From: Chitinophagaceae bacterium UBA1931
GTDB lineage: Bacteria > Bacteroidota > Bacteroidia > Chitinophagales > Chitinophagaceae
Length of the DNA stretch: 64,000 bases
Assembly: GCA_002337125.1 (NCBI GenBank)
Contig: DDFJ01000001.1
Location: 967,342-1,031,341, forward strand
Reading direction: 5' to 3'
In this document: piece after piece, positions 12,492 through 58,691 of the stretch
How the letters are laid out: every line of letters starts with the position of its first letter
How positions within the stretch are numbered: position 1 is the first letter of the stretch
Notes under the pieces: generated by a model
Told to the model about the DNA's origin: nothing
Seen by the model: only the letters and a program-made list of their open reading frames with translations
The model's database searches: none
Translations under genes and position numbers: made by a program

Positions 12492-12514
12492 ACATTCCAT
12501 CTAATAACAATCGC

Positions 12515-13588: not shown

Positions 13589-13771
13589 TAATTTCAGAAT
13601 CTCTATTCCTCCAGATAATAATAGAAAAAAAATTAAGGATAGCAATCCATATAATAGTAGTATAAAAATATTTCGATAAAAATCCGAAAAAAATAAAATC
13701 ATATTGAAAAAATTAATTTGATACTAAATATATTCTTTACATATCCCTATTAATTTACTACTATTTAAGAT

Positions 13772-15133: not shown

Positions 15134-15210
15134 AAAATAATGTTTTTCTTATCTACACAATTTTTTTCTAAAATATTTCTTACAAAATCAACCACCATTA
15201 TCGTCTAACT

Positions 15211-17885: not shown

Positions 17886-17889
17886 GATA

Positions 17890-19802: not shown

Positions 19803-19835
19803 ATTGTAAGGGGTAAAAGTCAATTTACTTATTCA

Positions 19836-21107: not shown

Positions 21108-21108
21108 A

Positions 21109-21915
21109 ATGATTTTAATTTCAATAATAATAGCTACCTATAATGCCGGTAAAGACCTGCAAGCCTGCCTTGACAGTATTATCAGCCAAAAAAAAAATTA
21201 TATTGAGATAATAATAATCGATGGCAATTCAAGTGATAATACAAAAGAAATAATAAAAAGGAATGAGAATATAATTAGATATTGGGTGAGTGAACCAGAC
21301 AAAGGAATATATGATGCATGGAATAAAGGTATTTCACAAGCTAAAGGTAGCTGGATTATGTTCTTAGGAGCTGACGACCAACTATTGCACGGCTCACTAG
21401 ATATTTATAAAAAAGCCATCAGCGAACTAAAGAATGCAGACAATATTGATTTGATCTCTGCAAAAATGCAAATGGTTGATAAATATAACAGGCCAAAAAG
21501 AATTAAGGGTTCACATTTTGAGTGGCCGTTATTTTTAAAGAAAATGACAATAGCACATCCGGGGGCTTTACATTCTTCCCAATTATTTAAAAAAATTGGT
21601 AAATACAATACTGATTACCGAATCGTAGGTGATTATGAATTATTATTAAGAGCAGGCGCATCTTTAAACACCATTTTTATAAATGAAATTACCGTATTAA
21701 TGAAAGAAGGTGGGGTTAGCGACAATTCATCGGCCCTAAAAGAACACTATTTAGCCGTAATATCTACAACAAACTATTCAAAACTTAGGGCAAAAAAAGA
21801 TTTTGTTGTTTCTTATATAAAGTTTCAAATTCGAAAACACATACCTTTTATCACTTCAATATTTATAAAGAAAGCTACAAATAATGAGGATTCAATTCAT
21901 ATTACGAAACAATGA
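21109..21915 (+). CDS. Glycosyltransferase family 2
   Basis: Contains ISIIIATYNAGKDLQACLDSIISQ, IIDGNSSDNT and EPDKGIYDAWNKG (GT-A fold, DxD region). Confidence 0.85.
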   Translation: MILISIIIATYNAGKDLQACLDSIISQKKNYIEIIIIDGNSSDNTKEIIKRNENIIRYWVSEPDKGIYDAWNKGISQAKGSWIMFLGADDQLLHGSLDIYKKAISELKNADNIDLISAKMQMVDKYNRPKRIKGSHFEWPLFLKKMTIAHPGALHSSQLFKKIGKYNTDYRIVGDYELLLRAGASLNTIFINEITVLMKEGGVSDNSSALKEHYLAVISTTNYSKLRAKKDFVVSYIKFQIRKHIPFITSIFIKKATNNEDSIHITKQ

Positions 21916-23017
21916 ATTATATGGGGCCAATAGAGTTTTATTATCCATTGCAGATTATTTAAAAGCAAACAATCATGAAATTTCGATTCTTCTTCCATCA
22001 AAAGGTGGAATAACACAAGAGTTTGAAGACCGAAATATTCCGTACTATACGATTTTCTTTTTCCCTCCTTTTTTGTACTTCAGATTATCTCCAAAGTATC
22101 TTGCATGGCCAATTTTATTTTGTATAAATATTATCAAATTCTTTCCAATAGTAAACGTAGTTAGAAAATTTAACCCTGATATTATTTACTCTAACACCTC
22201 TGCAGAAAATATAGGGATCCTGATTTCAAAAATTTTAAAGAAAAAGCATATATCCCACATTCATGAGTTCATGTCGTTAGATTATGCGACGTTTTTTATA
22301 GCAGGCAAAAAAAACAAACAGGCATACATTAATCAAAGTGATGGAGTGATATTTGTTTCAAAAGCAGTTGCAAATTATATAATGGGGTCCAACACATTAA
22401 AGTCCAAACACAGAATAATTCCAAACGGAGTTCCAAATCCAGAAATAATTCTTCATAAAAAAACTTTGTCAGAAGAATTAAACTTTGGAATTGTTGGTAT
22501 TCTGTCGCCAGGAAAAGGGCAGGATTTAGCCATTGAATATTTTGCAAAACTACTTTTTCGTTATCCTAAATCAAAACTGCATATTTATGGAGATAAGGAA
22601 GGATGGTACAAAAAGAAAATTGTTCGGCTAATTAATAAACTCAATTTGCAGGAGAAAGTAATTCTTCATGGCTTTCAGCGAAATACTAATGCAATTTTCG
22701 AAACCCTCGATATTCTTTTTATGTTTTCGAAATCTGAAGGATTCGGAATGGTAACAGTTGAAGCCATGTTGCGAGGTGTGCCTGTTATAGGTTTCAACAA
22801 TGCCGGAACTGGCGAAATAATAACTGACAAACAAACCGGATGCTTATTCAATGATTACAATTCATTTCAAGATTCAGTATCTTATTTGATTTGCTCAAAT
22901 GATACTTATGAAAATATCCGTTCGCAAGCTCATATTACTGCCAAATCTCAATTTTGTGAATTGACTTTTACTCAAAACATTGAAAAGTTTATTAAACAAA
23001 TTGCCAACTCGAATTAA
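21884..23017 (+). CDS. Glycosyltransferase family 4 (GT-B)
   Basis: Contains FSKSEGFGMVTVEAMLRGVPVIGFNNAGTGEIITDKQTG (E-x7-E). It overlaps the upstream gene by 32 nt. Confidence 0.85.
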   Translation: MRIQFILRNNELYGANRVLLSIADYLKANNHEISILLPSKGGITQEFEDRNIPYYTIFFFPPFLYFRLSPKYLAWPILFCINIIKFFPIVNVVRKFNPDIIYSNTSAENIGILISKILKKKHISHIHEFMSLDYATFFIAGKKNKQAYINQSDGVIFVSKAVANYIMGSNTLKSKHRIIPNGVPNPEIILHKKTLSEELNFGIVGILSPGKGQDLAIEYFAKLLFRYPKSKLHIYGDKEGWYKKKIVRLINKLNLQEKVILHGFQRNTNAIFETLDILFMFSKSEGFGMVTVEAMLRGVPVIGFNNAGTGEIITDKQTGCLFNDYNSFQDSVSYLICSNDTYENIRSQAHITAKSQFCELTFTQNIEKFIKQIANSN

Positions 23018-23134
23018 AAATATATTAATGATGTACGTATTAACTAAAATAAAAATGATTGAATCGCAATATGAAACTTTATAAAACCTGCAATTAAAAA
23101 AAGATTTTATTCTGATACTAACAGTAAAAAATTA

Positions 23135-23911
23135 ATGCGAGTTTCAATCATAACAATTGTATATAATAATCAAAAGAATATTGCCGACTGTTTGCAATCT
23201 GTACACAGCCAAAACTATTCAAACATTGAGCATATAGTCATTGATGGAGGGTCAACGGATGGCACTCAGGAAAAAATAGCAAAATTCAATAAACATCTTT
23301 CCTGTTATATTTCAGAGAAAGATAATGGTTTATACAATGCACTTAACAAAGGGATAAAAAAAGCCACAGGTGATATCGTGGGAATTCTACATTCTGACGA
23401 TTTATTTTATAATGAAAATGTAATTTCAGATATCGTGGATTTCTTCCATAAAACAAATGCGGATTTAGTTTATGCAAATGGAATGTATGCAGACCAAAAA
23501 GATATAAGAAAAATTAAACGCTTTTATAAATCTTCGCCTTTTAAAAAATATTTTTTGAAATTTGGTTGGATACCTCTTCATACTACAATTTATGTTAAGA
23601 GAGATGTTTTCGAAAAGTATGGTTTATATGAAGAGTATTATAAAATTGCTAGTGATTATGAAATTTCATTAAGATGGTTTACAAGCAAAAAAATCACTAA
23701 AGCATTTCTTGATAAATGGGTTGTAAAAATGAGACTAGGTGGCAAAAGCACAACTCTTGGTCTTCAAAAGCTCAAGTCAAGTGAAGACCTTGCTATTATT
23801 AAGAAATACAACTTAAATGGATACTTTACACTAGCATTTAAAATATTAAGAAAGATCCCACAATACATATATCCTATGTTTATAAGTGTTAAAAAAGGTA
23901 AAAGAACTTAA
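23135..23911 (+). CDS. Glycosyltransferase family 2 (paralogue of 21109-21915)
   Basis: Contains VSIITIVYNNQKNIADCLQSVHSQ, VIDGGSTDGT and EKDNGLYNALNKG. It has the same architecture and length class as the other GT2. Confidence 0.85.
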   Translation: MRVSIITIVYNNQKNIADCLQSVHSQNYSNIEHIVIDGGSTDGTQEKIAKFNKHLSCYISEKDNGLYNALNKGIKKATGDIVGILHSDDLFYNENVISDIVDFFHKTNADLVYANGMYADQKDIRKIKRFYKSSPFKKYFLKFGWIPLHTTIYVKRDVFEKYGLYEEYYKIASDYEISLRWFTSKKITKAFLDKWVVKMRLGGKSTTLGLQKLKSSEDLAIIKKYNLNGYFTLAFKILRKIPQYIYPMFISVKKGKRT

Positions 23912-24006
23912 GTTTTAAAGTAAAAATATCTACTTTTAAAAATAGCTTTGAAGTTTAGTAAAAACATATTTAACAGCTTTTATAACTGCAGAAAAAGCCT
24001 ATCAAG

Positions 24007-25392
24007 ATGAGAGGGTCTACAAAAACGAAATATTTACAGCGTCTCTTTCTTGATTTTATTGTAATCACTTTTTGTTTTGTGCTTGTTCGAGTTTTATTCA
24101 AGAAATATCACGAACATATATTTGATCTACGTTCTTTTGTCTTACTCGGTTATATTTTATCTGCATGGTATTTTGCAGCTAAACTCACTAAACTTTACAC
24201 TGGATTTCTTGATCGCATTCTTTCAGCAGAATGGGTTGCCTTGATTAAAACTTATCTTACACATTTCCTTGCGGTAATTGCTGCATTATATTTTTTATCT
24301 AGAGATCCAATTCAAAACAAATGGTTTCTTATTGTCTTCGAGTTCCTACTTTTTTATTTTTTAGCAATTGAAAAATATTTAGCCCGATGGTATTTTGGAA
24401 GCCAACTCAGCGATCGATATAAAATACCTATAATTATTATAGGCACGGAAATACAAGGGATTAGATTTTATCAAAGGGTGCTTTTAAATTCAGCATATAA
24501 CTACAAATTGACAGGATTTATTGGAGAAACAGAACAACCATTAATTACGGATAAATATCTTGGCAAGATTGATGAACTGGACTCCGTTTTAAATCAGCAT
24601 TCAGATGTAGAAGAACTTATCATAGCATTACCTAACAGCTTAAACTATAAAATAAAAAAAATTATAAAATCAGGAGAAAAGAAGGCATTAAAAGTAAGAA
24701 TCGTGCCAGATTATTATGAATTTACAGAAACCTTTGGTATTTCTGACATAGCTTCAATACCAGTTATCTCTGTAAGAAAAATTTCCCTCGAAGACAGTGA
24801 AATCAGGCTCTTAAAAAGAGTATTTGATATTCTTTTTTCTACTTTTATTATTCTACTTGTTTTAAGCTGGTTATATCCAATTATAGCATTACTGATTAAA
24901 TTAGAATCAAAGGGACCTGTGCTTTTTAAACAATTACGGTCCGGACAGGCAAATAAGAATTTCTATTGCTACAAATTCAGGTCAATGAGATCTGACAATG
25001 ACAAACTAGATTTGCAGGCACAAAAAAATGACAGCAGGTTAACACGTATCGGAAAGTTTATACGAAAAACAAGCATTGACGAATTGCCCCAGTTTTTTAA
25101 TGTTTTAATTGGCAATATGTCGGTAGTAGGTCCAAGACCACATATGGTTGAACACACTGAAAAATATGCTGCAATAGTTGATGAATACATGATTCGTCAT
25201 TATGTTCAGCCAGGAATAACCGGCTGGGCACAGATTAATGGTTTCAGGGGAGAAACTAAAGATCCTTCCATGATGGAAGCTCGTATAAGACACGATATCT
25301 GGTATATTGAACATTGGAGTTTTTGGCTTGATCTGCAAATTATTATTCAAACAGTTATCAATGTTTTTAAAGGAGAAAAAAACGCATACTAA
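24007..25392 (+). CDS. Polyprenyl-phosphate hexose-1-phosphate transferase (WbaP/WcaJ-type initiating sugar transferase)
   Basis: It has N-terminal TM helices. The C-terminal Bac_transf domain reads KRVFDILFSTFIILLVLSWLYPIIALLIKLESKGPVLFKQLRSG...YKFRSM...TRIGKFIRKTSIDELPQFFNVLIGNMSVVGPRPH. Confidence 0.9.
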   Translation: MRGSTKTKYLQRLFLDFIVITFCFVLVRVLFKKYHEHIFDLRSFVLLGYILSAWYFAAKLTKLYTGFLDRILSAEWVALIKTYLTHFLAVIAALYFLSRDPIQNKWFLIVFEFLLFYFLAIEKYLARWYFGSQLSDRYKIPIIIIGTEIQGIRFYQRVLLNSAYNYKLTGFIGETEQPLITDKYLGKIDELDSVLNQHSDVEELIIALPNSLNYKIKKIIKSGEKKALKVRIVPDYYEFTETFGISDIASIPVISVRKISLEDSEIRLLKRVFDILFSTFIILLVLSWLYPIIALLIKLESKGPVLFKQLRSGQANKNFYCYKFRSMRSDNDKLDLQAQKNDSRLTRIGKFIRKTSIDELPQFFNVLIGNMSVVGPRPHMVEHTEKYAAIVDEYMIRHYVQPGITGWAQINGFRGETKDPSMMEARIRHDIWYIEHWSFWLDLQIIIQTVINVFKGEKNAY

Positions 25393-25436
25393 CTATTTTA
25401 ATTCCTGCTTCACAGGATAAAGAATCTATTTGTTAC

Positions 25437-27074
25437 ATGATGAAAAATGTTCAGAAAAGGCTATTTTCATTTATATTCCTCTGTTTTGTTTCGTTGACAT
25501 CATTTGCACAATCGCTTACAATCAATCATGAAAATGAGTTACTGGAGTTTAAAAAGAAAAACACAGACACTCATTATTCGTTTATGATGTACCCGTTAAC
25601 TGATGACTCTTTAGATACTTATCAATCTAAGCCTGTTAAAAAAATTATCTATAAAAAGGATTTTTCGTTTAGCATTTTTAATCCTGAATTTGTAACACGT
25701 TATAATAGTAAAGCTCCGTTTGGCTGGAATGATGGGACCATGATACCTAACAGAGGCTTTCAAAATATGACCACTACAGGCTTTTTCTTGAAAAAGAATT
25801 TTTTCTCTGTTCAGGTCAAACCAGAACTATTGTTAGTTCAGAATAAACCATTTCTAACATTTCCTGAAATATACAGCGATAACTTATGGGCAGTGAGGTA
25901 CAACCTTTTCAACCAGGTTGACAATCCTGAACATTTTACAAAAGTCAGGAAATTTTACCCCGGACAATCTAATATTAAATTAACCTTCAAAAAGTTATCG
26001 GCTGGTATTTCAACAGAAAACAGATGGTGGGGACCCGGACGTTATAACAGTATTTTAATGACTAATAATGCTCCCGGTTTCTTACATATTTTCCTTCAAA
26101 CAGAAAGACCAATAAATACCAAAATCGGGAGTTTTGAATTTCAGTTTATTGCCGGAGATATTTATGGTTCGGGTGAATTACCACCTGATACCGGAAGGAC
26201 AATCAACAATATAAGACTGTATAAAGCAAAGCCAGATAATGACAAGAGATACATCAATGGTTTAGTACTTGCATACCGGCCTTCTTTTGCCAAAGGTTTA
26301 TCATTAGGAATTGGAAGAGTTTTCTATTTGTACAAGACCGACAGGTTAAAAACATTTGACGGATATTTACCGGTATTTGGTGGTGTGTTTAAAAATGAAA
26401 CAACTAACGAGGACGAAAAAAAAAGAGATCAACTTCTTTCTGTTTACCTAAAACAACAATTTGAGAATGGTAAATCAGACATCTATCTTGAATTTGCAAG
26501 AAATGATCATGCATGGAATTTGCGGGATTTCATTTCCGATCCTTTTCATTCGAGGGCATACATAGCCGGGGTTAACAAATATTACAAACTACCCAAGCGT
26601 ACATTAAATATTAATATTGAAATTTCTGAACTAAGTAAATCAGCAAAAACAAATCCAAGAGCAACTCCTTATTGGTATACACATCACCAGGTTGTTCATG
26701 GTTATACTAATTACGGACAGGTACTTGGTGCAGGAATTGGCCCTGGTTCTGCTATGCAATCTGTAACGGCTGATTTCATCAAATCACCCACGAATAATTT
26801 CGGTTTTTACGTGTACCGCATTGAACGAAACAAAGATTTCTTTTATGATGCATTTCTTCCGACATATGAATATTACAGGAAGTGGGTGGATATGGTACTG
26901 GGATTCAAAATAAACAAATCGTTTAAATATTTCAATCTCTGTTCCAATATTAATTTCATACGATCTTACAACTATGAATGGCAGTATAATCCAACATCAC
27001 AAAACGGGCCATTGAAAGATGGGGTTGATATACTCAACTTATCTGCAAATGTTTCGCTTCAATACAAATTATAA
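25437..27074 (+). CDS. Outer-membrane beta-barrel protein, possibly Wzi-like capsule assembly protein
   Basis: 545 aa with a signal peptide. It shows alternating-hydrophobicity beta-strand character and a terminal aromatic/aliphatic strand (NVSLQYKL). It is the last gene of the polysaccharide locus. The family call comes from context plus general resemblance only. Confidence 0.5.
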   Translation: MMKNVQKRLFSFIFLCFVSLTSFAQSLTINHENELLEFKKKNTDTHYSFMMYPLTDDSLDTYQSKPVKKIIYKKDFSFSIFNPEFVTRYNSKAPFGWNDGTMIPNRGFQNMTTTGFFLKKNFFSVQVKPELLLVQNKPFLTFPEIYSDNLWAVRYNLFNQVDNPEHFTKVRKFYPGQSNIKLTFKKLSAGISTENRWWGPGRYNSILMTNNAPGFLHIFLQTERPINTKIGSFEFQFIAGDIYGSGELPPDTGRTINNIRLYKAKPDNDKRYINGLVLAYRPSFAKGLSLGIGRVFYLYKTDRLKTFDGYLPVFGGVFKNETTNEDEKKRDQLLSVYLKQQFENGKSDIYLEFARNDHAWNLRDFISDPFHSRAYIAGVNKYYKLPKRTLNINIEISELSKSAKTNPRATPYWYTHHQVVHGYTNYGQVLGAGIGPGSAMQSVTADFIKSPTNNFGFYVYRIERNKDFFYDAFLPTYEYYRKWVDMVLGFKINKSFKYFNLCSNINFIRSYNYEWQYNPTSQNGPLKDGVDILNLSANVSLQYKL

Positions 27075-27157: not shown

Positions 27158-28633
27158 TCAGAGATTACGAATCCAGCCCTCGTAATAAACTGCAGCTTTT
27201 GATTCTGCGTTTTGCTGAAAACTGGTTTTGGTAAGTTTCAGTTGTTTTAATGCATCAATGTTTTTATACACGCCTGCTTTTAATCCGGCCATAAATGCTG
27301 CTCCTAAAGCTGACACATCAGCAATACCAATATTCACCACTTGTTTCTGTAACAGCTCAGCAATAAACTGCATCACAAATTTGTTGGAAGTAATACCACC
27401 ATCTGCATTCAGTTGCTGTAATGAAACACCGGCATCTATTTCCATAGCTGTTATCACATCTTTGATCTGGTAAGGAATGGATTCAAGTGCCGCACGTACA
27501 ATATGATTTTTAGTTGACCCAAAACTCAAACCAACAATTGACGCTCTCCTATCCATTTGCCAATGCGGCGAACCTAGTCCGCTGAAGGCAGGAATAAGGT
27601 AGACTCCACCGTTATCAGCAACAGCATTGGCCATTGCTTCTGTTTCTTTACTGTCGCTGAATAAATTTAATTCGTTCTTTATCCATTCAATTGTTGCACC
27701 GCAGGAAACAATCACACCTTCCAGTGCATAATCAACTCTTTCTTCGGTACTCCAGCAAATCGTTGTGACCATTCCATTAGCAGATTGAACAGGCTTGTTG
27801 CCGATGTTCATTAAAATACTGCAGCCGGTTCCCAATGTTGCTTTTGCAGTTCCTGTTTCAAAACAACCTTCTCCAAATGCAGCAGCATGTGAATCTCCAA
27901 TCATTCCTGTTACCGGTACTGCTGTTGAAAGCATGCCGTTCAATGTTGTTTCTCCAAAGAAAGAAGAAGATGGTTTTACCTGTGGTAGCTGAATACCTGT
28001 TAAGCCAAATACTTTGATCAGCTCTTCATCCCATTGCAATGAATGAAGATTAAAAAACATGGTACGTGATGCATTGGTATAATCTGTTGCATAGGATTGA
28101 CCATTGGTGAATTTGTACAACAACCAGGCATCAACTGTTCCAAAATATGCTTCACCTTTAGCAAGAGCTGCTTTTACAGTATCATTATTCTTCGATAACC
28201 AGATAAGTTTTGTAGCTGAGAAATAGGGATCAATCACCAACCCGGTTTTTTGCTGAATGGTTTCTGCAAGCCCCTGTTGTTTTAATTCTTCGCAGAGCTG
28301 CACAGAACGTTTACACTGCCATACAACAGCATTGTGCAAAGGCTTTCCATTTTTATCCCACAGCACAAACGTTTCACGTTGGTTGGAAATACCAATACCT
28401 GCAATTTTACTTTTGTGAAATCCTTTTTCAGCAAACTGCTGCAGGCATTTTTGCACTGAAGCAAGTACATTCTCATAAATCACCTCAGGTTCCTGTTCAA
28501 CAAAACCATTATCGGTATAATGAGTAAACAAAGGTTCAGAACCTTTGGCAACAGCCTGTCCCTTTTCATCAAAAATTAATGACTTGGTTGAGCTGGTACC
28601 CTGATCAATTGCTAAAATATATTTCGCAGACAT
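27158..28633 (-). CDS. FGGY-family carbohydrate kinase (glycerol-kinase-like paralogue; candidate ketopentose/apulose kinase)
   Basis: 491 aa with YILAIDQGTSSTKSLIFDEKG and GIGISNQRETFVLWDKNGKPLHNAVVWQCKRS. This is close to, but deviates from, the canonical GlpK (WQDRRT). It is co-operonic with a split transketolase. Confidence 0.85.
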   Translation of the reverse strand: MSAKYILAIDQGTSSTKSLIFDEKGQAVAKGSEPLFTHYTDNGFVEQEPEVIYENVLASVQKCLQQFAEKGFHKSKIAGIGISNQRETFVLWDKNGKPLHNAVVWQCKRSVQLCEELKQQGLAETIQQKTGLVIDPYFSATKLIWLSKNNDTVKAALAKGEAYFGTVDAWLLYKFTNGQSYATDYTNASRTMFFNLHSLQWDEELIKVFGLTGIQLPQVKPSSSFFGETTLNGMLSTAVPVTGMIGDSHAAAFGEGCFETGTAKATLGTGCSILMNIGNKPVQSANGMVTTICWSTEERVDYALEGVIVSCGATIEWIKNELNLFSDSKETEAMANAVADNGGVYLIPAFSGLGSPHWQMDRRASIVGLSFGSTKNHIVRAALESIPYQIKDVITAMEIDAGVSLQQLNADGGITSNKFVMQFIAELLQKQVVNIGIADVSALGAAFMAGLKAGVYKNIDALKQLKLTKTSFQQNAESKAAVYYEGWIRNL

Positions 28634-28646
28634 TGTTTATTTTTTT

Positions 28647-28664
28647 CACAGATTTACAGATGAG
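28647..28664. repeat. Short copy of the CACAGAT intergenic repeat family
   Basis: cacagatttacagatgag, 14 nt upstream of the kinase start codon. Confidence 0.5.
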
Positions 28665-28769
28665 TTCAAGCGTCCCCATTGTTCTGTTTTGTTTTGGGCA
28701 ACAGAATAAAACGAGAACAATAATAAAAGGCAGATAATGTTAAAACGTGCAGCAATCATTTTCCATTTT

Positions 28770-29732
28770 TTATGACAGCAATTTTTTTGCCTGTTCAGAA
28801 ATTCCTTCTGCACTTATTCCGTAATGTTTGAATATTTCAACCTGTGAACCACTCACTGTGTATTCATCTGGAATACCCATAATTTTAAACGGCCTGCAAT
28901 AACCATTCTGCAACAGGTAAGAAGCACAAGCTTCCCCAAGTCCGCCATTTACACTATGCTCTTCAACTGTAATGATTGCTTTTACTTTTCCTGCAAGTGC
29001 AGAAAGCAATTCCGTATCGAGTGGTTTAATTGTATGCATACTTACCACTGTTGCATTAATGCCGCTTTCTTTCAGCAATGCTGCAGCCTTTACTGCCGGA
29101 TCAACTGTTTCGCCATTGGCGATGATAGCAAGATCATCTCCTTCAGTAATCACTCTTCCTTTACCAAAAGCAAAAACTTCATTGCTGTTTTCTTTCAGCA
29201 AAGGCATTATTTTTTTACCGAAGCGTAGATAAACTGGTTGTTTACTTTCAGCAGCAAGTATTGTTGCCTGCTCGGTTTCATAATTATCAGCCGGAGCAAC
29301 AATGATGATATTATTGATTGCACGTAATGCAGCAAAATCATGCAGACTGTGATGTGTGCTTCCCAATGCTCCATAACTAACACCGGCACTGATACCAACT
29401 ACAGTAACAGGATGATCGCTGTAACAAATATCATTTTTGATTTGCTCCAATGACCTTGCAGTTAAAAAACATGCAGGTGATACAGCAAATACTTTTTTAT
29501 CGCATGAACCAAGTCCTGCGGCTACACCAACAAGGTTCTGTTCTGCAATACCCACTTCAACAATCTGCTTCGGAAACTTTTTACCAAACGGAACAAGTTT
29601 TCCCGAACCTCTTGAATCGCTTGTTACAGCAATGATGTTCTGATCAGTTTCTGCCAAACGCTGCAGTGTTTCTGAAAACACATCCTGGTTTGGTTTATCT
29701 CCTCCCGGAATAATATTTATTTGTTCTGCCAT
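28770..29732 (-). CDS. Transketolase, C-terminal (pyrimidine-binding) subunit of a split enzyme
   Basis: 320 aa with VEVGIAEQNLVGVAAGL and GSTHHSLHDFAALRAINNIIIVAPAD. Confidence 0.9.
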   Translation of the reverse strand: MAEQINIIPGGDKPNQDVFSETLQRLAETDQNIIAVTSDSRGSGKLVPFGKKFPKQIVEVGIAEQNLVGVAAGLGSCDKKVFAVSPACFLTARSLEQIKNDICYSDHPVTVVGISAGVSYGALGSTHHSLHDFAALRAINNIIIVAPADNYETEQATILAAESKQPVYLRFGKKIMPLLKENSNEVFAFGKGRVITEGDDLAIIANGETVDPAVKAAALLKESGINATVVSMHTIKPLDTELLSALAGKVKAIITVEEHSVNGGLGEACASYLLQNGYCRPFKIMGIPDEYTVSGSQVEIFKHYGISAEGISEQAKKLLS

Positions 29733-29767
29733 TATTTTAATTTTCTCTCACTGTTGCTAAAATACTT

Positions 29768-29796
29768 CTCACAGATTACACAGATTAACACAGAAA
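29768..29796. repeat. CACAGAT intergenic repeat
   Basis: ctcacagattacacagattaacacagaaa has three CACAGA units at 9-10 nt spacing. It lies between the two transketolase subunit genes. Confidence 0.7.
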
Positions 29797-29803
29797 TGCT
29801 TTG

Positions 29804-30634
29804 TTAATCATGTAAACTTGTGAGCAATTCATCAAGCTCACTTATTGCCTGTTCGTACTGTTCTTTGTTGGGAACTCCATGATGCCACTTCACTTCATTT
29901 TCCATGAAGCTTACGCCTTTTCCTTTAGTTGTATGCGCAATTACCATCGACGGTTTTCCTTTTTCAAATGGTAGTGCTGCAAATGTTGCCGATAATGCTT
30001 CTACATCATTACCATCAACTTCACGCACTGCCCAGCCAAAAGCTTTCCATTTTTCATCCAGCGGATCAGTATTACACACATCAGCGGTAGGCCCGGTTAT
30101 CTGCAATGTATTCTTATCAACAATAGCGCATAAGTTGTCGAGCTTGTAATGCGCAGCAGATAATGCAGCTTCCCAGTTACTACCTTCAGGCAACTCACCA
30201 TCGCCCATTAATATAAACACCCGGTAATCTTTCTGATCAAGTTTGGCTGCAAGTGCTGTACCTACACAAATAGGCAAACCATGCCCCAACGCTCCGGTGT
30301 TTTGTTCCACACCATTTACTTTACGTGTTGGATGACCAATGTATTTCGATTGGTATTTGCACAGTGTATCCAGATCTTCTTCCGGAAAAAAACCTTTGTC
30401 GGCCAGTACAACATATAAAGCTTCCACACAATGTCCCTTGCTTTGTACGTAACGGTCACGGTCGGGCGATGTAAAGTTTTGTGGCGATACATTCATCACT
30501 TTATTGTACAACACATTCAGGATATCTGTACTCGACAAACTTCCTCCTGTATGCCCGGCTTTGGCACCCACAATGTATTTGAGTATTTTTTTACGGTACC
30601 CGACTGATTTTTTCTTCAGTTCATTTGTATTCAT
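29804..30634 (-). CDS. Transketolase, N-terminal (TPP-binding) subunit of a split enzyme
   Basis: 276 aa with GHTGGSLSSTDIL, GALGHGLPICVG and GDGELPEGSNWEA. Confidence 0.9.
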   Translation of the reverse strand: MNTNELKKKSVGYRKKILKYIVGAKAGHTGGSLSSTDILNVLYNKVMNVSPQNFTSPDRDRYVQSKGHCVEALYVVLADKGFFPEEDLDTLCKYQSKYIGHPTRKVNGVEQNTGALGHGLPICVGTALAAKLDQKDYRVFILMGDGELPEGSNWEAALSAAHYKLDNLCAIVDKNTLQITGPTADVCNTDPLDEKWKAFGWAVREVDGNDVEALSATFAALPFEKGKPSMVIAHTTKGKGVSFMENEVKWHHGVPNKEQYEQAISELDELLTSLHD

Positions 30635-30642
30635 ACCTTATT

Positions 30643-30675
30643 CTCCCACAGATTTCTCAGATTAACACAGATAAG
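30643..30675. repeat. CACAGAT intergenic repeat
   Basis: ctcccacagatttctcagattaacacagataag fills most of the 49-nt gap between the isomerase stop and the transketolase-N start. Confidence 0.7.
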
Positions 30676-30683
30676 TTGAATGA

Positions 30684-32105
30684 TTAAATATGATTGTAGG
30701 TTTCCCAACCTAAATAGTTTTCAAATGCTTCTTTTAAAATGCCTGCTGTTTTGCTTGCATTCATCACTACATGATGTTCAAATCCATTGCGGCAAACATA
30801 TTTCATGAGCCCTTGCAGATCGCTGATCTGTGCAACAGCCCTGTTGCCAAATGTTTTCAATTCATCATTGGTTAATTCGCCTTCACCTACATAAGCTTTG
30901 ATAATGCCTTTGCAATCATCTGTACTGATACGGCCGAAAGTTAATGGCATTGCAGGTGTGCGGCCATCCAAAGCACCATAGGTATTTTCAGTTCCTACTG
31001 TTGTTCCAAGAATCGGAGCAGTACTGATGGTGATATCAGGCAGGAATGATTTAGCCCAGTTACCACAATGGAACAATACGCATTTTGTATCATCATCAGC
31101 ATAGTTATTATTCCAGTCAACCAATGCAGAAGGTGAACCACTTGCAAGCTGCATAGCATACATACTGAGCGTACCGGTTACATCCACTTCGCACGCAGAA
31201 GGCAACATATTTTCACTCATCATGCTCATGCTTGTACAAACATTACAACCATAGTTTTGTTGCAGTGAAGTCCAGCATTGAATAGCAGTTGCATCAAGTG
31301 AATTAGCTGCCATAAAATCAGCCAGCACCACATCTAATTTTGCAATCTGCACTAAACGGTCATTGGGTGTTAAACCAGTGTTGGTATATGCATGAATTTT
31401 TTCCAGCTTCTCTTTTACTGATTTATCCTCTGCGGTTAATTTATTAGCGTTGCCGAGTATTTCACTAAGGTCAACTGTTGTAACTGAAATACCATTGCGC
31501 TGCAAAATTTTTTCGCTGTAACGTACTGTATTGAAAGCTCCTGGTCTTGCACCAACAGCACCAATACGAACTTTACGCATACCTTTTACCACACGACAAA
31601 CAGCCACAAATTCTTTCAGGTCCTTGATAAATGATTCATCTGTTGGACGAACCACATGCTTTGTTGTTAATGAATATTTGATACCAAACTGGTACAGGTT
31701 ATTGCAGACAGAAATTTTTCCGCACCATGCATCTCTCCTGTTCACCACATCCAGTTTGCCCAAATCATCAGGATAACCCTGGATGAGCACCGGTACATTC
31801 AGCCCCGACCATTTAATGGTTTCAGCAACACCTTTCTCATCACCAAAATTTGGAAGTACCACAAGAATACCATCAATCTGTTCTGCATGTTGCTTAAACA
31901 ACTCTGCACATTTCTGTGCTTCAGCAAATGTTTCCACACCGCCAAGTTTTGTATCCGCATCACTTAACATGATGGGTGTAATGCCCAGCTTCGTAAAAAG
32001 ATCCAGTATTTCTGTTCTTGCTTCTGAAACTAATTTATCAGGAAAAAAATCCCTGTTACCAATGATCACTCCTAATGTGGACTGCTTGTAATGATTTGTG
32101 CTCAT
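30684..32105 (-). CDS. L-fucose/L-arabinose isomerase-superfamily sugar isomerase (about 470-aa subfamily)
   Basis: 473 aa with N-terminus LGVIIGNRDFFPDKLVSEAR and C-terminus FGRISTDD...GFEHHVVMN, typical of COG2407-type isomerases. Confidence 0.75.
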   Translation of the reverse strand: MSTNHYKQSTLGVIIGNRDFFPDKLVSEARTEILDLFTKLGITPIMLSDADTKLGGVETFAEAQKCAELFKQHAEQIDGILVVLPNFGDEKGVAETIKWSGLNVPVLIQGYPDDLGKLDVVNRRDAWCGKISVCNNLYQFGIKYSLTTKHVVRPTDESFIKDLKEFVAVCRVVKGMRKVRIGAVGARPGAFNTVRYSEKILQRNGISVTTVDLSEILGNANKLTAEDKSVKEKLEKIHAYTNTGLTPNDRLVQIAKLDVVLADFMAANSLDATAIQCWTSLQQNYGCNVCTSMSMMSENMLPSACEVDVTGTLSMYAMQLASGSPSALVDWNNNYADDDTKCVLFHCGNWAKSFLPDITISTAPILGTTVGTENTYGALDGRTPAMPLTFGRISTDDCKGIIKAYVGEGELTNDELKTFGNRAVAQISDLQGLMKYVCRNGFEHHVVMNASKTAGILKEAFENYLGWETYNHI

Positions 32106-32404
32106 AATATTAATTCTGAAAGTGACTAAATAAGTCTGTCATTGACAATTGATGATATTTTTTTGAATGAAACAAGAATACAATATTCGCCAATATTGAA
32201 TTTGCAAATACGATTAGTTCGCTAAAAGCAACATTAATTTTACAGGAAAGAAATAATGTAAAAAGCTGTCTTGCCGGCAACCGTTTCATTAGTAATAATT
32301 TTTCTGCAGACGAAAATTCTGACCAATAAAAGTACGCTTGCTATACCCCTGAAAAATGTGAGGTATCACTAAAAAGATGGAAAATATTACTATTTACGAA
32401 AAGC

Positions 32405-34633
32405 TTACTCCTGGAACACTTTTTTGAGATAGGCTGTATTGGCACCATAATTATACTTGGTGTCAGTTGGTTTTTTGGCATCACGGCTGCGTTCAATTAC
32501 CAGCCATCCGCTCCAACCCATTTCATCCAGTGTCTTTTTCACTTTGTACATATCGATCTGCGGATCGTTCTGCAGCCACACACTGTCTTTGTTGGTGGCA
32601 TGAATCATACTGATGCGGTCTTTGCCTAAAATTTTTAATTCGCTGATGAGATCCCTTCCTTCTTTTAACGGGTTGGAAAAGTTGAAATAGATTTTGATAT
32701 TGGGAGAACCGATTTCTTTCAGCAGCTGTACTTCTTCTTTTGCATTCAATGATGTTTCAATGCTGATGATGACACCTGCAGCTTCAGCCATTTTACCCAC
32801 CACTTTCAAACGGGCAACAACAGAATCACGAACGGAAGGATTTTTTTTGATATCACATTGCACACCTAATGGAAGGAAACCATATTTCACATTCATCAGC
32901 TTCATGGTTTTGATACAGTCTTCAATACTGCGGATGTATTCTTCTCTTCCGCAAAACGATTGTGCATAATAACCCGTCATTGCAAGACAAAAGATTTCAA
33001 CTTTATTTTCCTTTGCAGTTTTCAGGAATTGATTGCGCACAGTATCATTCAGCAACTGGTTATCAAATGTTGGTCTTGTGCCAAGTCCGCCCATATCAAC
33101 TTCTACACCATCAGCTTTTAGTTGAGCAGTTAATGTAATAGCACCAAGCTTTTGACGCTTGAGCAGCATCAGGTCAATCAAACCAATTTTATAGCGTTGA
33201 TTAGTTCTTGCCTTTTCAATTTCTTCAGCAAATACACGTTCAAGATTTTCAAATCCATGAATAGCATTAGCAGGAAGCTTTTCACCATTATCTCCAAACA
33301 CATACAAACTCTTTTCAGGTTCGATCGTGATTTTTGATTCATCTATTTTTCCTTCTGCATCCTGTACTGCTTTCAAATTCAGGTTAAGGTATTTTGCCAT
33401 GAAATTGTAAACAGCAATACGTTTATTAATTCCGAAATCATGTTTTTCTTCAGGCAAATGCACATTCGATACATTTTCCTGTTTGCCATACCAGCTATAC
33501 ATTTTCTGCAGGTAAAGAAAATCATGTTCAGGCATACGGTCTGTCCAATCACCTCCATCACTTACAATCAATTGCGGACGTGGCGCTGCCATTGCTGCCA
33601 GTTCCACATTATCTGTTCTTCCACCACAACTGTGAATATCCATTCCACTTTCACAAGGGCAACCACCATAGAAATAGGATGAAAGAGAAACAACAGGTGC
33701 AGAAAATTTAATGCGATCATCTAATGCAGTCATCAACACAGTATGACTTCCTGCTCCTGAACCACCGGTCATTGCAACACGACTTGTATCTGCATCTTTT
33801 TGTGACAGTAAATAATCAAGAATACGAATGCTTCCCAATGCCTGGATGGTCATTGATAAACTTCTGCGATGATCTTCGGGTTTAAACTGCAACAACGATT
33901 CGCCCCATGCAAACAAATCATAACTGAAAGCCATTGCTCCCATTTTTGCCAATGCTGCACAACGGTACTGGCAATCGGCACGGTAACGTTGTTTTTCCCA
34001 ATGACCATCTGGATTTAATATCACCGGAATTTTTCCTTTATACTTCAACGGTTTGTATAATGAACCATTCACCCACAAGCCGGGTAAAATTTCAATCGCA
34101 ATATTTTCAACTGTATAACCATCAAATACACGTTTGGGCGTAATGATTGGTTTGCTGTTGGGCGATGCAGGAAGATGTGTTAGTTGCAATGCTTCTTTTA
34201 AACAAGGCTTCAGATCCTGTTTACGTTTTTCCCATTCATCCAATGTTTTGTATTGTGCTGCAATACGGTCTAACTCTGCCCAGCCATCTTCAACAGACCA
34301 GCGGTAATATTCATACACACTGAGTTTATACTGTTTATCTTTTTCTTTCTTTGCTTTCAGTTCAAGCGGCTTCAGGATATTATCCAGTGTTACTTCCACA
34401 TCAGGCCTGTATTTCCATTCTGCATAAGTTACCTTTTTATTCACAACCATACTATCAGCATACTTGATCGTGATGCCATACTTTTTCTGTACATCATTCA
34501 ATATTTCTTTTAATGGTTTGACGTATTGATTGTCTGTATTCAATTGTGAAAATGAATTAAACCACAACGACACAAAAACACAAAGAAGCAGAATTGTTTT
34601 TTTACCCGATTGAAATGATCTTACCAATTGCAT
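32405..34633 (-). CDS. Secreted fusion protein: N-terminal alpha/beta-hydrolase (esterase-like) domain plus C-terminal xylose-isomerase-like TIM-barrel (sugar phosphate isomerase/epimerase) domain
   Basis: 742 aa with a signal peptide (ILLLCVFVSLWFNSFSQ). The hydrolase core has VAMTGGSGAGSH as nucleophile-elbow variant. From about residue 490, IGLIDLM...VEIFCLAMTG...VIISIETS...WSGWLVIERS matches AP_endonuc_2-type TIM barrels. Confidence 0.7.
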   Translation of the reverse strand: MQLVRSFQSGKKTILLLCVFVSLWFNSFSQLNTDNQYVKPLKEILNDVQKKYGITIKYADSMVVNKKVTYAEWKYRPDVEVTLDNILKPLELKAKKEKDKQYKLSVYEYYRWSVEDGWAELDRIAAQYKTLDEWEKRKQDLKPCLKEALQLTHLPASPNSKPIITPKRVFDGYTVENIAIEILPGLWVNGSLYKPLKYKGKIPVILNPDGHWEKQRYRADCQYRCAALAKMGAMAFSYDLFAWGESLLQFKPEDHRRSLSMTIQALGSIRILDYLLSQKDADTSRVAMTGGSGAGSHTVLMTALDDRIKFSAPVVSLSSYFYGGCPCESGMDIHSCGGRTDNVELAAMAAPRPQLIVSDGGDWTDRMPEHDFLYLQKMYSWYGKQENVSNVHLPEEKHDFGINKRIAVYNFMAKYLNLNLKAVQDAEGKIDESKITIEPEKSLYVFGDNGEKLPANAIHGFENLERVFAEEIEKARTNQRYKIGLIDLMLLKRQKLGAITLTAQLKADGVEVDMGGLGTRPTFDNQLLNDTVRNQFLKTAKENKVEIFCLAMTGYYAQSFCGREEYIRSIEDCIKTMKLMNVKYGFLPLGVQCDIKKNPSVRDSVVARLKVVGKMAEAAGVIISIETSLNAKEEVQLLKEIGSPNIKIYFNFSNPLKEGRDLISELKILGKDRISMIHATNKDSVWLQNDPQIDMYKVKKTLDEMGWSGWLVIERSRDAKKPTDTKYNYGANTAYLKKVFQE

Positions 34634-34647
34634 AATGAATGATTTTA

Positions 34648-36216
34648 TTATTCAGCAGAATAAATGACCTGACTTTTTTTACGTAACTCCTTCCAGCCAC
34701 TGATCAGCAAATTTCTATCCACTTCCTGTTTTGGAAAGAACAGGCTGGTGACATAACCGATCACCACAACTACAAGATGACTGTACACACCCAGCATTAA
34801 TTTATGTTGTTTGAAATTATAATTGCCCAGGTCAAGCAGCAAACGTTTTTCATTACCCAAACCAATTTTAGTAGATGTAAGCAATGCATACGCAGTGAAA
34901 ATAATACAGGCAATAATCCCGATTGTTACACCTTGCTTATTTGCTCTTGAACTGAATAGGCCTAAAAGAAATATTCCAGCAATACCACCGGAGAAGATTG
35001 CATACAATGTAAACACAATGCCCAATACACCTTCATCACCAGCAAGCAGATACAAAGCACCAATAGCAACAGCTAAAAAGCCAGCAATAAATACGAGCCA
35101 CTTACCCACTTTCAGGTATTCTTCATCTGTGCGTCCGGGACGGATTTTCTTGTAATAATCTTCCACACCAACTGCAGCAATACAATTTAAATCAGCACCA
35201 AGACTGCAGATAGCTGCAGATACCAGCGATGATAAAATCAAACCAACAACACCGGGCGGCAATTGTGATACGATGAAATGCGGGAACACAGCATCAGCCC
35301 TGATACCAGCAGGTAAAGGGTTCTGTTGATAAAACACAAACAAACCTGTGCCGATAAACATAAACAAAGCCCATACAGGAACAATTAAAAAAACACCCAT
35401 CAATGCGGCTTTGATTGCAGAACGATCTGACTTTGCTGTTAAATAACGTTGCACGATTGTCTGGTCAGTTCCGTATTTCTGGATGGCATAAAATATTCCG
35501 TTGATAGCCATTACCCAGAAGGAAAGTTTTGTAAAATTGAAATTATAAGGTCCGAAGCCGGTATGTTTATTTTCACTGGCAATTTTCCATACTTCAGCAG
35601 GCCCGCCATTAACAGAAAACAAAATAATGGCAAGACAGGCAATGCCACAGGCAAACAACATAAAACCCTGCAGTACATCCAGCCATATCACCGCTTCAAT
35701 TCCTCCCAGCAATGCAAGCACAATAATCGCTATTCCGATAATAAACAGGATGATCAATGTATTTACTCCCGTCATGTTTGACAAGGCTAACGATACAAGA
35801 AAAAACACCGTTCCCATTTTTGAAAAATGCGACAACACAAAACTGGTGGAACTATAGTATCGTGCAAACAAACCAAAACGCTTTTCAAAATATTCGTAAG
35901 TACTTAAACCAATTGCATGACGGAACAACGGAACCACAAACCAGATTAAACTCAGCAACACAATCGGCACCATCAAACCCTGCACCAGCAAAATCCAGTT
36001 CGATGAAAAACCTTCGCCGGGATAAGCAAGAAAAGTAATACTGCTGATGAGTGTTGCAAGTATGGACAAACCAATTGCCCATGAAGGCATTTTTCCTTTT
36101 GCAAGAAAATAACTGGAAGTTGATTTCTGTTTATGTGCAAAGCTGAAACCGAGGTACAGCACAATGCTGATGAAACTGAAAATAATAATGTAATCAATGA
36201 TGTGTAAATGATTCAT
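34648..36216 (-). CDS. Sodium:solute symporter (SSS family)
   Basis: 522-aa polytopic protein with FLAKGKMPSWAIGLSILATLISSITFLAYPG, typical of the SSF family. Confidence 0.9.
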   Translation of the reverse strand: MNHLHIIDYIIIFSFISIVLYLGFSFAHKQKSTSSYFLAKGKMPSWAIGLSILATLISSITFLAYPGEGFSSNWILLVQGLMVPIVLLSLIWFVVPLFRHAIGLSTYEYFEKRFGLFARYYSSTSFVLSHFSKMGTVFFLVSLALSNMTGVNTLIILFIIGIAIIVLALLGGIEAVIWLDVLQGFMLFACGIACLAIILFSVNGGPAEVWKIASENKHTGFGPYNFNFTKLSFWVMAINGIFYAIQKYGTDQTIVQRYLTAKSDRSAIKAALMGVFLIVPVWALFMFIGTGLFVFYQQNPLPAGIRADAVFPHFIVSQLPPGVVGLILSSLVSAAICSLGADLNCIAAVGVEDYYKKIRPGRTDEEYLKVGKWLVFIAGFLAVAIGALYLLAGDEGVLGIVFTLYAIFSGGIAGIFLLGLFSSRANKQGVTIGIIACIIFTAYALLTSTKIGLGNEKRLLLDLGNYNFKQHKLMLGVYSHLVVVVIGYVTSLFFPKQEVDRNLLISGWKELRKKSQVIYSAE

Positions 36217-36231
36217 ACAATCGTTTTTTAT

Positions 36232-36290
36232 CTCTCACAGATTTCTCTGATTAACACAGAAAAAAAATCTGTGAACATCTGTGCAACCTG
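36232..36290. repeat. CACAGAT intergenic repeat, extended copy with inverted units
   Basis: ctctcacagatttctctgattaacacagaaaaaaaatctgtgaacatctgtgcaacctg. The cacaga-A7-tctgtg part can form a hairpin. It occupies the 80-nt gap between the DUF1537 kinase stop and the SSS start. Confidence 0.7.
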
Positions 36291-36296
36291 TAAACT

Positions 36297-37415
36297 CTAT
36301 TCAAATATCTTTTTAACTTCTTCTGCCAATGGATAACTGCCGGGCTTTACAGTAATAAACCATCCACCTGCTTTCATCCGCACCACACCCCTGCTAAATT
36401 CATTTACTGGAATGAGCTGATGAATATTCATTTCATGAAACAAAGCCATAGCTGAAGAACCACCTTCAACCAATACTTCTTTCACCTGGTTTTGTTGCAG
36501 CAGTTTCTTTACCACTTTCGCCATTACAGAACGCAGTGTTACCGCTGTTATTCCTGCAGGGATTTGTGCTGCATCAAAACCAACAATGATTTTCTGTTCA
36601 CTGTTAATCATCTCTTTGCAATGCAAAAACCACTGCTCATCTTCTTCACCAGCTATCAGCTTTTCGCTGAGGTATGCAACCAGCTGCTTTTTTTCAGCAA
36701 CAGCTTTTACATAATTCACCGACTGATCATAGGCTGTGCCACACACATACATAAAAGGTGCTTGCAACTGTAGCTGCTGCTGATTTTTTTGCTGAAACTT
36801 TTTTGCAAGAAGAGCTGTATAAAAATCACCTGCACCTGCAAGTACAAAAGCTGAATCAACTTTATCAGCCCATTGCTTCACATCAGCTTCAGTAGATGCT
36901 TCTCCAACAAAAATTTTATCGGCAGACAATTCATCTGTCGATTTCACAACTGCAACAGATGCATCATTCAATATCTGTTCAACAAGCGAACTCTTTGCAG
37001 GAAATTCAGGATCGGCTGCAAAACCTGTTTCCGCAACAGGCACACCCTGCACATAATAAATTCCGTTGCTGATGATTCTTCCCAATGAAGGATTCGCAGG
37101 TAGTACAAATGCTTTTGTTAATCCTGCAAGCCTCATCTGCAGTTTCAGTTCTTCTGTAACATAACCACGCAGAACCGAATCAATTTTTTTATAAATGAAA
37201 ACAGGTTTTAATTCCAGCAACTGTTTTAAAACCGTTGAAGTAATTTCTAAAGCTTTTTCTTTTTCAAACGAACGGCTGTCGGTTGATACAATCAGCACAT
37301 CAGCTGTTGTTGCAGCAACATCACCTGTACATAGTTCAGCTGTCAGTCCGTAACGCAGACTGATACCAGCTAACTCTGCTGCACCTGTAAAATCATCTGC
37401 AATAACGGCTATCAT
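36297..37415 (-). CDS. Four-carbon acid-sugar kinase (DUF1537 family; DtnK/DenK/OtnK-like)
   Basis: 372 aa. The N-terminus IAVIADDFTGAAELAGI is the hallmark DUF1537 motif. Its start directly abuts the PdxA-family gene (37415/37416). Confidence 0.85.
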   Translation of the reverse strand: MIAVIADDFTGAAELAGISLRYGLTAELCTGDVAATTADVLIVSTDSRSFEKEKALEITSTVLKQLLELKPVFIYKKIDSVLRGYVTEELKLQMRLAGLTKAFVLPANPSLGRIISNGIYYVQGVPVAETGFAADPEFPAKSSLVEQILNDASVAVVKSTDELSADKIFVGEASTEADVKQWADKVDSAFVLAGAGDFYTALLAKKFQQKNQQQLQLQAPFMYVCGTAYDQSVNYVKAVAEKKQLVAYLSEKLIAGEEDEQWFLHCKEMINSEQKIIVGFDAAQIPAGITAVTLRSVMAKVVKKLLQQNQVKEVLVEGGSSAMALFHEMNIHQLIPVNEFSRGVVRMKAGGWFITVKPGSYPLAEEVKKIFE

Positions 37416-38441: not shown

Positions 38442-38542
38442 TTCGTCTTTATTTTTAAAACCCCGTCAGCGATTGAAAACCTTGATGGCGGTTTATATCT
38501 TATTATTTTTTGTAATCAGCTTTTGTGCTTCTTAATTACTCC

Positions 38543-38559
38543 TGTTGCGTCGCACACTT
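38543..38559. repeat. Copy A of the conserved 17-mer TGTTGCGTCGCACACTT
   Basis: Exact 17/17 match with 58692-58708. Both copies lie in intergenic gaps of minus-strand operons. The core TGCGTCGCA is palindromic. Confidence 0.6.
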
Positions 38560-38584
38560 GTACGGCAATAACTCTATTCAACTT

Positions 38585-40656: not shown

Positions 40657-40665
40657 ATTGATCGT

Positions 40666-41649: not shown

Positions 41650-41751
41650 TGCTATATGGCATTGATTTTAGAAAGAAAAAATTACAAAACTCAATACTAC
41701 AACTGTTCTGTTTTCTGCAAATGGAACATCCAACTATTTTAATGGAAGATG

Positions 41752-43362: not shown

Positions 43363-43379
43363 ATAAAATGATTGTATTA

Positions 43380-58675: not shown

Positions 58676-58691
58676 TTCTGTTTTCAACTTT

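Follow-up and report, generated by a model that had tools for sequence, protein, structure and literature searches.

Which sugar is degraded by the four genes that close a rhamnogalacturonan II (RG-II) type locus in Chitinophagaceae bacterium UBA1931? The genes encode a sugar isomerase, the two subunits of a split transketolase (TK), and a kinase of the FGGY family, and they lie at 27158-32105 of a stretch of 64,000 nucleotides (contig DDFJ01000001.1, positions 967,342 to 1,031,341), which is called the window herein. Judged from sequence comparison and gene context, they probably serve, in the cytoplasm, the catabolism of D-apiose via the transketolase route, as a module of an RG-II utilization locus. 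RG-II and apiogalacturonan carry apiose as a signature sugar, the consumption of which by pectin-degrading Bacteroidota and Verrucomicrobiota is, to our knowledge, poorly documented. The D-apiose transketolase pathway with the enzymes ApsI, AplK, and AptA/AptB was reportedly described by Carter et al. in 2018. It is entered in MetaCyc as PWY-8089. The pathway is already known, and what is new is the operon as its member in a polysaccharide utilization locus (PUL) for RG-II of Bacteroidota. The elements of the operon and the gene related to its proposed substrate are the following:

30684-32105, minus strand: sugar isomerase gene, open reading frame (ORF) of 473 amino acids (aa), Pfam Fucose_iso_C
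29804-30634, minus strand: gene of the TK N-subunit (TK-N), ORF of 276 aa, Pfam Transketolase_N (PF00456)
28770-29732, minus strand: gene of the TK C-subunit (TK-C), ORF of 320 aa, Transket_pyr (PF02779) and Transketolase_C (PF02780)
27158-28633, minus strand: FGGY kinase gene, ORF of 491 aa, FGGY_N and FGGY_C
57284-58687, minus strand: GH140 apiosidase-like gene, PF13204 Apiosidase, 377 bits
27089-27125, unstranded: palindromic intrinsic terminator, 17-bp stem with an A-run on one side and a T-run on the other
32106-32404, minus strand: intergenic region of 299 bp 5' of the isomerase gene, holding a direct repeat

An earlier note, made from the sequence of the window, had described the four ORFs and the apiosidase-like gene on the same strand; all of them are real, and the domains of the four are confirmed by Pfam and NCBIfam. 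Transcription proceeds from the isomerase to TK-N, TK-C, and the kinase, with gaps of 49, 71, and 136 bp. In the minus-strand sequence, the stem-loop lies approximately 30 nt past the stop codon of the kinase and is followed by a T-run; the terminator, a strong one, is predicted to close both the four-gene operon and the convergent capsule operon on the plus strand. On the 5' side, the 299-bp region may act as an internal promoter or operator; within it, the direct repeat AATATTG-GCG-AATATTG at 32180-32200 is a possible operator. A scan for sigma-70 promoters returned fewer sites than shuffled controls and was discarded, as the model is ill-suited to Bacteroidota. On the minus strand, the whole block between 63590 and 27158 makes up one locus of RG-II type: it encodes a BT_1020-like protein, a fusion of GH78 and GH33, a GH2, a DUF6298 protein, and the GH140 apiosidase-like protein, and it ends with the four genes. 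The GH140 gene is located ~25 kb upstream of the operon in the direction of transcription and is the likely source of free apiose.

In the proposed pathway, apiose would be freed by the GH140 apiosidase and then imported. The AraA-fold isomerase, acting as a metal-dependent aldose-ketose isomerase, would turn apiose into apulose, which the GlpK-like kinase would phosphorylate to apulose-4-phosphate. The split TK, dependent on thiamine diphosphate, would then move the C1-C2 glycolaldehyde unit to glyceraldehyde-3-phosphate, thereby yielding dihydroxyacetone phosphate and xylulose-5-phosphate. These substrates and products, as well as the transporter used in this genome and the regulation, are what we infer. 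The case for them is built on what was observed: how the genes are ordered, which folds and domains they encode, which derived active-site residues they share with AptB and AplK, and their conserved linkage to apiose-related genes.

The two TK subunits are encoded side by side as separate proteins, as are AptA and AptB. TK-N matches PF00456 with 150 bits, and its cofactor features are intact, comprising the GDG...N motif and the His residues of GH, SKGH, and GHP; in TK-C, the cofactor Glu (in IAEQN) is conserved. The split TK of Carboxydothermus hydrogenoformans (6YAK/6YAJ) has the same two-subunit architecture and served as the generic counterpart in the question, raised by the earlier note, of whether the subunits group with AptAB or with generic split TK. 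Overall identity is near-equal: between TK-N and AptA of E. coli, Rahnella, and Pectobacterium, it amounts to 50-52%, versus 49% for 6YAK, and between TK-C and AptB to 37-40%, versus 36% for 6YAJ. A neighbor-joining tree that included one generic split TK, with the window TK clade as sister to the clade containing AptA and 6YAK outside, was likewise uninformative for the assignment. The residue signatures, in turn, side with AptAB. The positions T29, Y62, Q64, H118, N153, and H252 of TK-N are common to the window protein and AptA and differ in 6YAK and human TKT, Y62 and Q64 of the window clade being shared solely with AptA. The same division is seen in the motifs GHTG, GALGHG, EGSNWEAA, and WHH and in Q64 before SKGH.

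For TK-C, positions were mapped to E. coli TktA via motif correspondence with 6YAJ, and the window clade was represented by 52 sequences. In canonical TK, R358, H461, D469, and R520 bind the substrate. The comparison at five TktA positions is the following:

TktA R358: R in 6YAJ, A in AptB, Q or L in the window clade (Q in the window protein)
TktA H461: H in 6YAJ, N in AptB, S in the window clade
TktA D469: D in 6YAJ, L in AptB, L in the window clade
TktA Q474: Q in 6YAJ, H in AptB, H in the window clade
TktA R520: R in 6YAJ, G in AptB, K in the window clade

Thus, 6YAJ keeps all five residues, whereas the window protein and AptB do not; R358, H461, D469, and R520 of canonical TK are lost in the window protein in parallel with AptB. 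A donor with a tertiary C3 whose phosphate is one carbon closer would fit the absence of D469 and of the residues that bind the distal phosphate. On residue signatures and gene context, TK-N of the window is therefore best described as AptA-like and TK-C as AptB-like.

The kinase shows a comparable picture. Against the GlpK subfamily model NF000756, it scores 587 bits and thereby exceeds the cut-off of 498, whereas both the window kinase (560) and E. coli AplK (495) stay below the cut-off of 590 of the GlpK equivalog TIGR01311. With E. coli GlpK (PDB 1GLA), the window kinase shares 42% identity over the full length, the catalytic D245, and R83, E84, and W103 (GlpK numbering); with AplK of E. 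coli, Rahnella, and Pectobacterium, the identity is 36-39%. Overall identity, which had been proposed as a check, is thus higher to GlpK but does not settle the assignment of the kinase. The pocket matches AplK at two positions: Q246 and F270 of GlpK are each replaced by Ser, a change common to the window kinase, all 42 operon kinases, and the three AplK. The GDQQ motif of GlpK herein reads GDSH. Based on these residues, the protein is a putative apulose kinase, converting apulose to apulose-4-phosphate, with an enlarged pocket of the AplK type rather than that of a glycerol kinase. AplK itself is heterogeneous. The Pectobacterium kinase is just 44-46% identical to those of E. coli and Rahnella, whereas AptA is 78-82% identical among the three (loci L001, L083, and L085), which suggests either kinase replacement or fast divergence within the cluster.

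The isomerase is the least familiar member of the operon. Its only Pfam match is PF02952 Fucose_iso_C (101 bits), and its sole match in NCBIfam is the sulfoquinovose isomerase SftI of the sulfoglycolytic transaldolase pathway (NF048012), with 90 bits far under the cut-off of 700 bits; the corresponding isomerase of Rahnella reaches 116 bits. SftI is another member of the isomerase superfamily, which isomerizes an unusual sugar ahead of a transferase that cleaves a C-C bond. Genes of sulfoglycolysis are absent from the vicinity of the window operon. A sequence search of the PDB with phmmer gave no match to the window isomerase. Its AlphaFold model has a pLDDT of 90.2, and the top Foldseek matches are L-arabinose isomerases with a TM-score of ~0.8 (best pairing 4R1Q, E-value 7e-24, TM-score 0.81), followed by FucI with 0.73-0.75. 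From this model, the three-domain fold of the AraA/FucI superfamily, as seen in L-arabinose isomerase, can be assigned confidently. Compared with the known members (PDB 4R1Q, 2AJT, and 1FUI), the predicted fold and the Fucose_iso_C domain agree, whereas the identity is 10-13%, the operon partners are others, and the proposed substrate is branched. E306, D308, D330, H346, H444, and H445 are invariant or nearly so in the family alignment and are candidate metal and catalytic residues; the order and spacing of these acidic and His residues appear similar to those of the Mn site of AraA. A profile comparison of the isomerase with E. coli AraA by hhalign did not align the two usably.

Proteins 99% identical to the window isomerase are labeled Lacibacter sp. 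(Chitinophagaceae), and the isomerases of the related loci described below are 62-91% identical to it. Such proteins of ~470 aa with PF02952 alone are currently annotated just as "L-fucose/L-arabinose isomerase family protein", and the source names of 240 homologs contain no mention of apiose. In a neighbor-joining tree, the gammaproteobacterial proteins are sister to all others; isomerases linked to TK occur on both sides of this deepest split, and the window protein is located deep inside a TK-linked clade. It is, by its sequence and context, a putative D-apiose isomerase (D-apiose to apulose) unrelated to the TIM-barrel ApsI.

The described apiose clusters can be compared with this assignment. 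On a contig of Pectobacterium sp., the order is solute-binding protein (SBP), DUF2291, ATPase, permease, AptA, AptB, FGGY kinase, PF01261 TIM barrel, and SorC. The xylose-isomerase-like TIM barrel is the only isomerase candidate of this cluster, which is consistent with the statement in the earlier note that the characterized apiose isomerase has such a fold. A plasmid of Rahnella aquatilis has this transporter and regulator as well, and its AptA shares 82% identity with the Pectobacterium protein; herein, a "fucose isomerase" of 472 aa is encoded between aptB and the kinase gene. The window isomerase is 55% identical to this protein over the full length, and further homologs of it are found in Klebsiella, Yersinia, Pasteurellaceae, and Vibrio. 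By the style of its accession, UniProt Q6D5T8 is taken by us to be a protein of Pectobacterium atrosepticum. This accession is given for the apulose kinase (EC 2.7.1.233) in a bioRxiv paper. In E. coli SE15, aplK, aptA, and aptB have been named, and strains grow on apiose (PMC13001218). The same paper covers the cluster of Pectobacterium, E. coli ST131, and E. fergusonii, in which the Escherichia cluster is without apsI of Pectobacterium and has two oxidoreductases instead (PMC13001218). The first step would hence be solved in three ways among equivalent clusters, by a TIM barrel, by an isomerase of the AraA fold, or by two short-chain dehydrogenases/reductases (SDRs).

No homolog of the Pectobacterium PF01261 protein was found by BLAST in the 64-kb window, nor in 1.43 Mb of 81 related loci. 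The window isomerase is therefore probably an analog, not a homolog, of the Pectobacterium TIM-barrel candidate, and the proposal of a non-orthologous isomerase is strengthened by the Rahnella cluster, which carries the type of the window. "Non-canonical", as it had been called, may be the wrong word, as this type appears widespread in such clusters. A literature search, with Carter et al. 2018 outside its reach, found no description of a PF02952-type apiose isomerase. In NCBIfam, models exist for OiaK and OiaX, and none matches AplK, AptA, AptB, or either isomerase type. Overall, the window operon resembles the enterobacterial pathway in that an aldose-ketose isomerase is encoded together with a split AptA/AptB-like TK and a GlpK-like FGGY kinase, and the enterobacterial type of ATP-binding cassette (ABC) transporter with SBP and DUF2291 also occurs in loci related to it. 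It differs in its AraA/FucI-fold isomerase (PF02952), in its location in a Bacteroidota RG-II PUL without ABC transporter or SorC, and in identities of just 36-52%.

The related loci comprise 80 from an isomerase scan of species-representative genomes, built on an alignment of five sequences, and one Logan contig. They stem from Bacteroidota, Verrucomicrobiota, Planctomycetota, Chloroflexota, and Acidobacteriota. Genes were counted per locus by a tblastn map and ORF clustering:

TK-N: 68 of 81 loci
TK-C: 67 of 81 loci
Kinase: 56 of 81 loci
SBP: 50 of 81 loci
DUF2291: 40 of 81 loci
DeoR regulator: 26 of 81 loci, in the place of the 299-bp region of the window
PF07632 nucleoside-hydrolase-like protein: 20 of 81 loci
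GH140 within 10 kb of the isomerase: 15 of 81 loci

In 63 loci, the TK-N gene follows that of the isomerase within 4 kb downstream and in the same orientation. The typical arrangement is DeoR, isomerase, TK-N, TK-C, SBP, DUF2291, ATPase, permease, and kinase; the window operon represents a short form without transporter, as in Lacibacter luteus (L003) and many Verrucomicrobiota. Assuming one to two GH140 genes per 5-Mb genome, fewer than one would be expected in the 1.43 Mb, compared with the 15 loci that have one; in L002, a GH140-type gene lies inside the operon. Further RG-II enzymes (BT_1020-like, DUF6298, GH127, and GH78) flank the operon in several loci. In L063 (14729-17352), genes of a RuBisCO-like protein and a DUF1537 kinase lie between kinase and SBP; their best NCBIfam models are OiaX (546 bits) and OiaK (492 bits), under the cut-offs of 700 bits and far above the next matches. 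RuBisCO-like genes recur in L023, L026, L049, and L064, and two apiose routes may be encoded together in such loci. The earlier proposal of an apiose module is thus well supported by the conserved order, by the linkage to GH140, OiaK/OiaX-like genes, and the SBP+DUF2291 transporter, and by the derived active-site substitutions that TK-C and the kinase share with AptB and AplK.

PF07632 (Sde182) proteins are encoded in L002 (11430-12887, between isomerase and TK-N), L013-L016, L032, L033, L038, L040-L043, L045, L048, L056, L059, and others; they might act on glycosides and thereby free apiose or a different furanose. On a contig of a metagenome-assembled genome labeled Acinetobacter pittii (L034), the operon is 90% identical to the Chitinophagaceae one, and in L039, L047, L052, L053, and L058, labeled Alphaproteobacteria, Thalassovita, or Pseudomonadales, the trees group the operons with Bacteroidota or Verrucomicrobiota. 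Mis-binning is likely in at least L034.

Several observations weigh against the D-apiose assignment. In overall identity, the TK subunits are no closer to AptAB than to generic split TK, and the kinase is nearer to E. coli GlpK than to AplK. Y135 is kept in the window kinase and in 42 of 42 operon kinases, whereas it is Leu in AplK. The TK-C substitutions mark a wider clade rather than apiose specifically, since they are present in clusters of Rhizobium and Caballeronia, whose TKs carry some of them but retain R358. Neither a DeoR homolog nor the ABC transporter of the related operons is found in the 64-kb window. Eight loci, mostly of Chloroflexota, encode an isomerase of 62-65% identity with no TK detected in the fetched DNA. 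In L075, L080, and L081, the isomerase lies beside a different FGGY kinase (~25% identical), and L079 has no kinase; these four loci belong to Chloroflexota and Terriglobia. The L080 cluster consists of SorC, SIS, a zinc-dependent alcohol dehydrogenase (Zn-ADH), a DRL-type oxidoreductase, the isomerase, the different FGGY kinase, an M24-like protein, and an ABC transporter, and in L070, a PfkB kinase and an NAD-dependent epimerase family protein are encoded upstream of the isomerase. The isomerase family may hence serve more than one route. Finally, the closest solved relative of the operon SBP (L002, 16450-17394) is the ribose-binding protein TM0958 of Thermotoga maritima (2FN8, 362 bits), which binds ribopyranose, and this similarity counts against apiose as well.

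The SBP leads to the question of whether the operon serves D-ribose or another ordinary pentose or ketopentose, with the isomerase forming D-ribulose or a similar sugar and the kinase and TK feeding the pentose phosphate pathway. All seven polar residues that contact ribose in the T. maritima protein are kept in the operon SBP, nucleoside-hydrolase-like PF07632 proteins occur in about a quarter of the loci, and enzymes of the AraA/FucI fold normally act on unbranched pentoses and hexoses. However, the same seven residues are identical in the Rhizobium etli protein 5IBQ, reportedly the complex of an apiose-binding SBP; if 5IBQ is such a complex, the SBP sequence cannot separate ribose from apiose, and it is read as neutral evidence between the two. 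Ribose, moreover, would need no more than a ribokinase, and the loci show no recurrent kinase of the PfkB family. A TK acting on xylulose-5-phosphate or ribose-5-phosphate would be expected to hold R358, H461, D469, and R520, which are missing herein, and the context of GH140, OiaK/OiaX, and RG-II genes points to apiose. We therefore regard an ordinary pentose as an unlikely substrate. Beside TM0958, TM0951-TM0954 presumably code for an isomerase-like protein, a GlpK-like kinase, and a split TK; the "ribose" locus of T. maritima could be worth re-examining.

The same enzyme logic could also be applied to another rare sugar, either a tetrose (erythrose or threose via erythrulose) or a different RG-II component. 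Such a use is suggested by the Rhizobium and Caballeronia clusters, in which split TK and FGGY kinase are combined with SDR or GolD/DthD-type polyol dehydrogenases and share TK-C substitutions, and by the Chloroflexota isomerase orthologs, which stand in another type of cluster together with genes for SIS, Zn-ADH, and a DRL oxidoreductase. It is rendered improbable by R358, which is lost in the window TK-C and in AptB, unlike in Rhizobium and Caballeronia, by Y62 and Q64, which the window clade has in common with AptA alone, and by the Rahnella cluster, where the window type of isomerase stands with an AptA so close to that of Pectobacterium. In addition, if erythrulose-4-phosphate were cleaved by TK, glycolaldehyde phosphate would remain, for which no further use is obvious. 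That no dedicated pathway exists, and that a housekeeping split TK and a glycerol kinase lie beside an unrelated sugar isomerase, is very hard to maintain. The kinase does pass the GlpK subfamily cut-off, overall identities to generic enzymes are similar, and split TKs are the housekeeping form in some bacteria; yet, at least five phyla have kept the same gene order, along with a dedicated transporter and regulator, both pocket residues are replaced in every operon kinase, and canonical substrate-binding residues are missing from the TK.

Next to the operon, a fusion protein was considered as a second candidate for the first step:

32405-34633, minus strand: fusion of an esterase-like and a xylose-isomerase-like TIM-barrel part, 742 aa, with a hydrophobic, signal-like N terminus

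The fusion is as the earlier note described it. Both halves are matched, adjacent to each other, in L035, and the TIM-barrel half is matched in L060. By BLAST, the fusion has no similarity to the Pectobacterium TIM-barrel candidate; for this reason and for its signal-like N terminus, the TIM-barrel half was rejected as the true ApsI.

Directly upstream of the operon region, a second catabolic module is encoded on the minus strand (34648-44936). It consists of, in the order of transcription, an SSF transporter, a weakly FucI-like protein (536 aa), a DHDPS-family aldolase, an iron-dependent alcohol dehydrogenase (Fe-ADH), a second DHDPS-family aldolase, a PdxA-like dehydrogenase, a DUF1537-type kinase, and an SSF transporter. 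Its core of DHDPS, PdxA, DUF1537, and SSF genes, with or without Fe-ADH, also lies beside the isomerase operon in L035, L055, L057, L058, and L062. The module may degrade another acid sugar of RG-II, for which aceric acid is a speculative candidate. At the far end of the locus, a protein of 549 aa (61941-63590, minus strand) has no Pfam match and recurs in seven related loci (L005-L008, L014, L067, and L073; 929-2578 in L007); in L005-L008, it is found on the same flank as DUF6298 and GH140. On the plus strand, 10071-27074 holds a capsule/exopolysaccharide locus with Poly_export/SLBB, a sugar transferase, and Wzi. Its GC content of 0.30-0.33, compared with 0.38-0.41 of the neighboring PUL, indicates that it may have been acquired horizontally.

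Beyond the single genome, we lean toward a wider reading, in which the widespread family of ~470-aa proteins with PF02952 alone would be a D-apiose isomerase replacing the TIM-barrel ApsI. The operon would then be a widespread apiose regulon of plant-cell-wall degraders among Bacteroidota, Verrucomicrobiota, and Planctomycetota, often with a "ribose-type" SBP+DUF2291 transporter, and some transporters and loci annotated for ribose would serve apiose. The isomerase is a probable non-orthologous replacement that is reflected in no database name. If the reading is true, a large, so far unnamed family, highly conserved with 62-91% identity across phyla, would gain a function, and a clear case of non-orthologous displacement would be added at the entry to a pathway discovered not long ago. 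For annotation pipelines, which presently label such genes "glycerol kinase" and "transketolase", the signatures Q246S/F270S of the kinase and H461S/N, D469L, and Q474H of TK-C would be useful. Moreover, the operon would provide a simple genomic marker of apiose use in soil, freshwater, and gut metagenomes.

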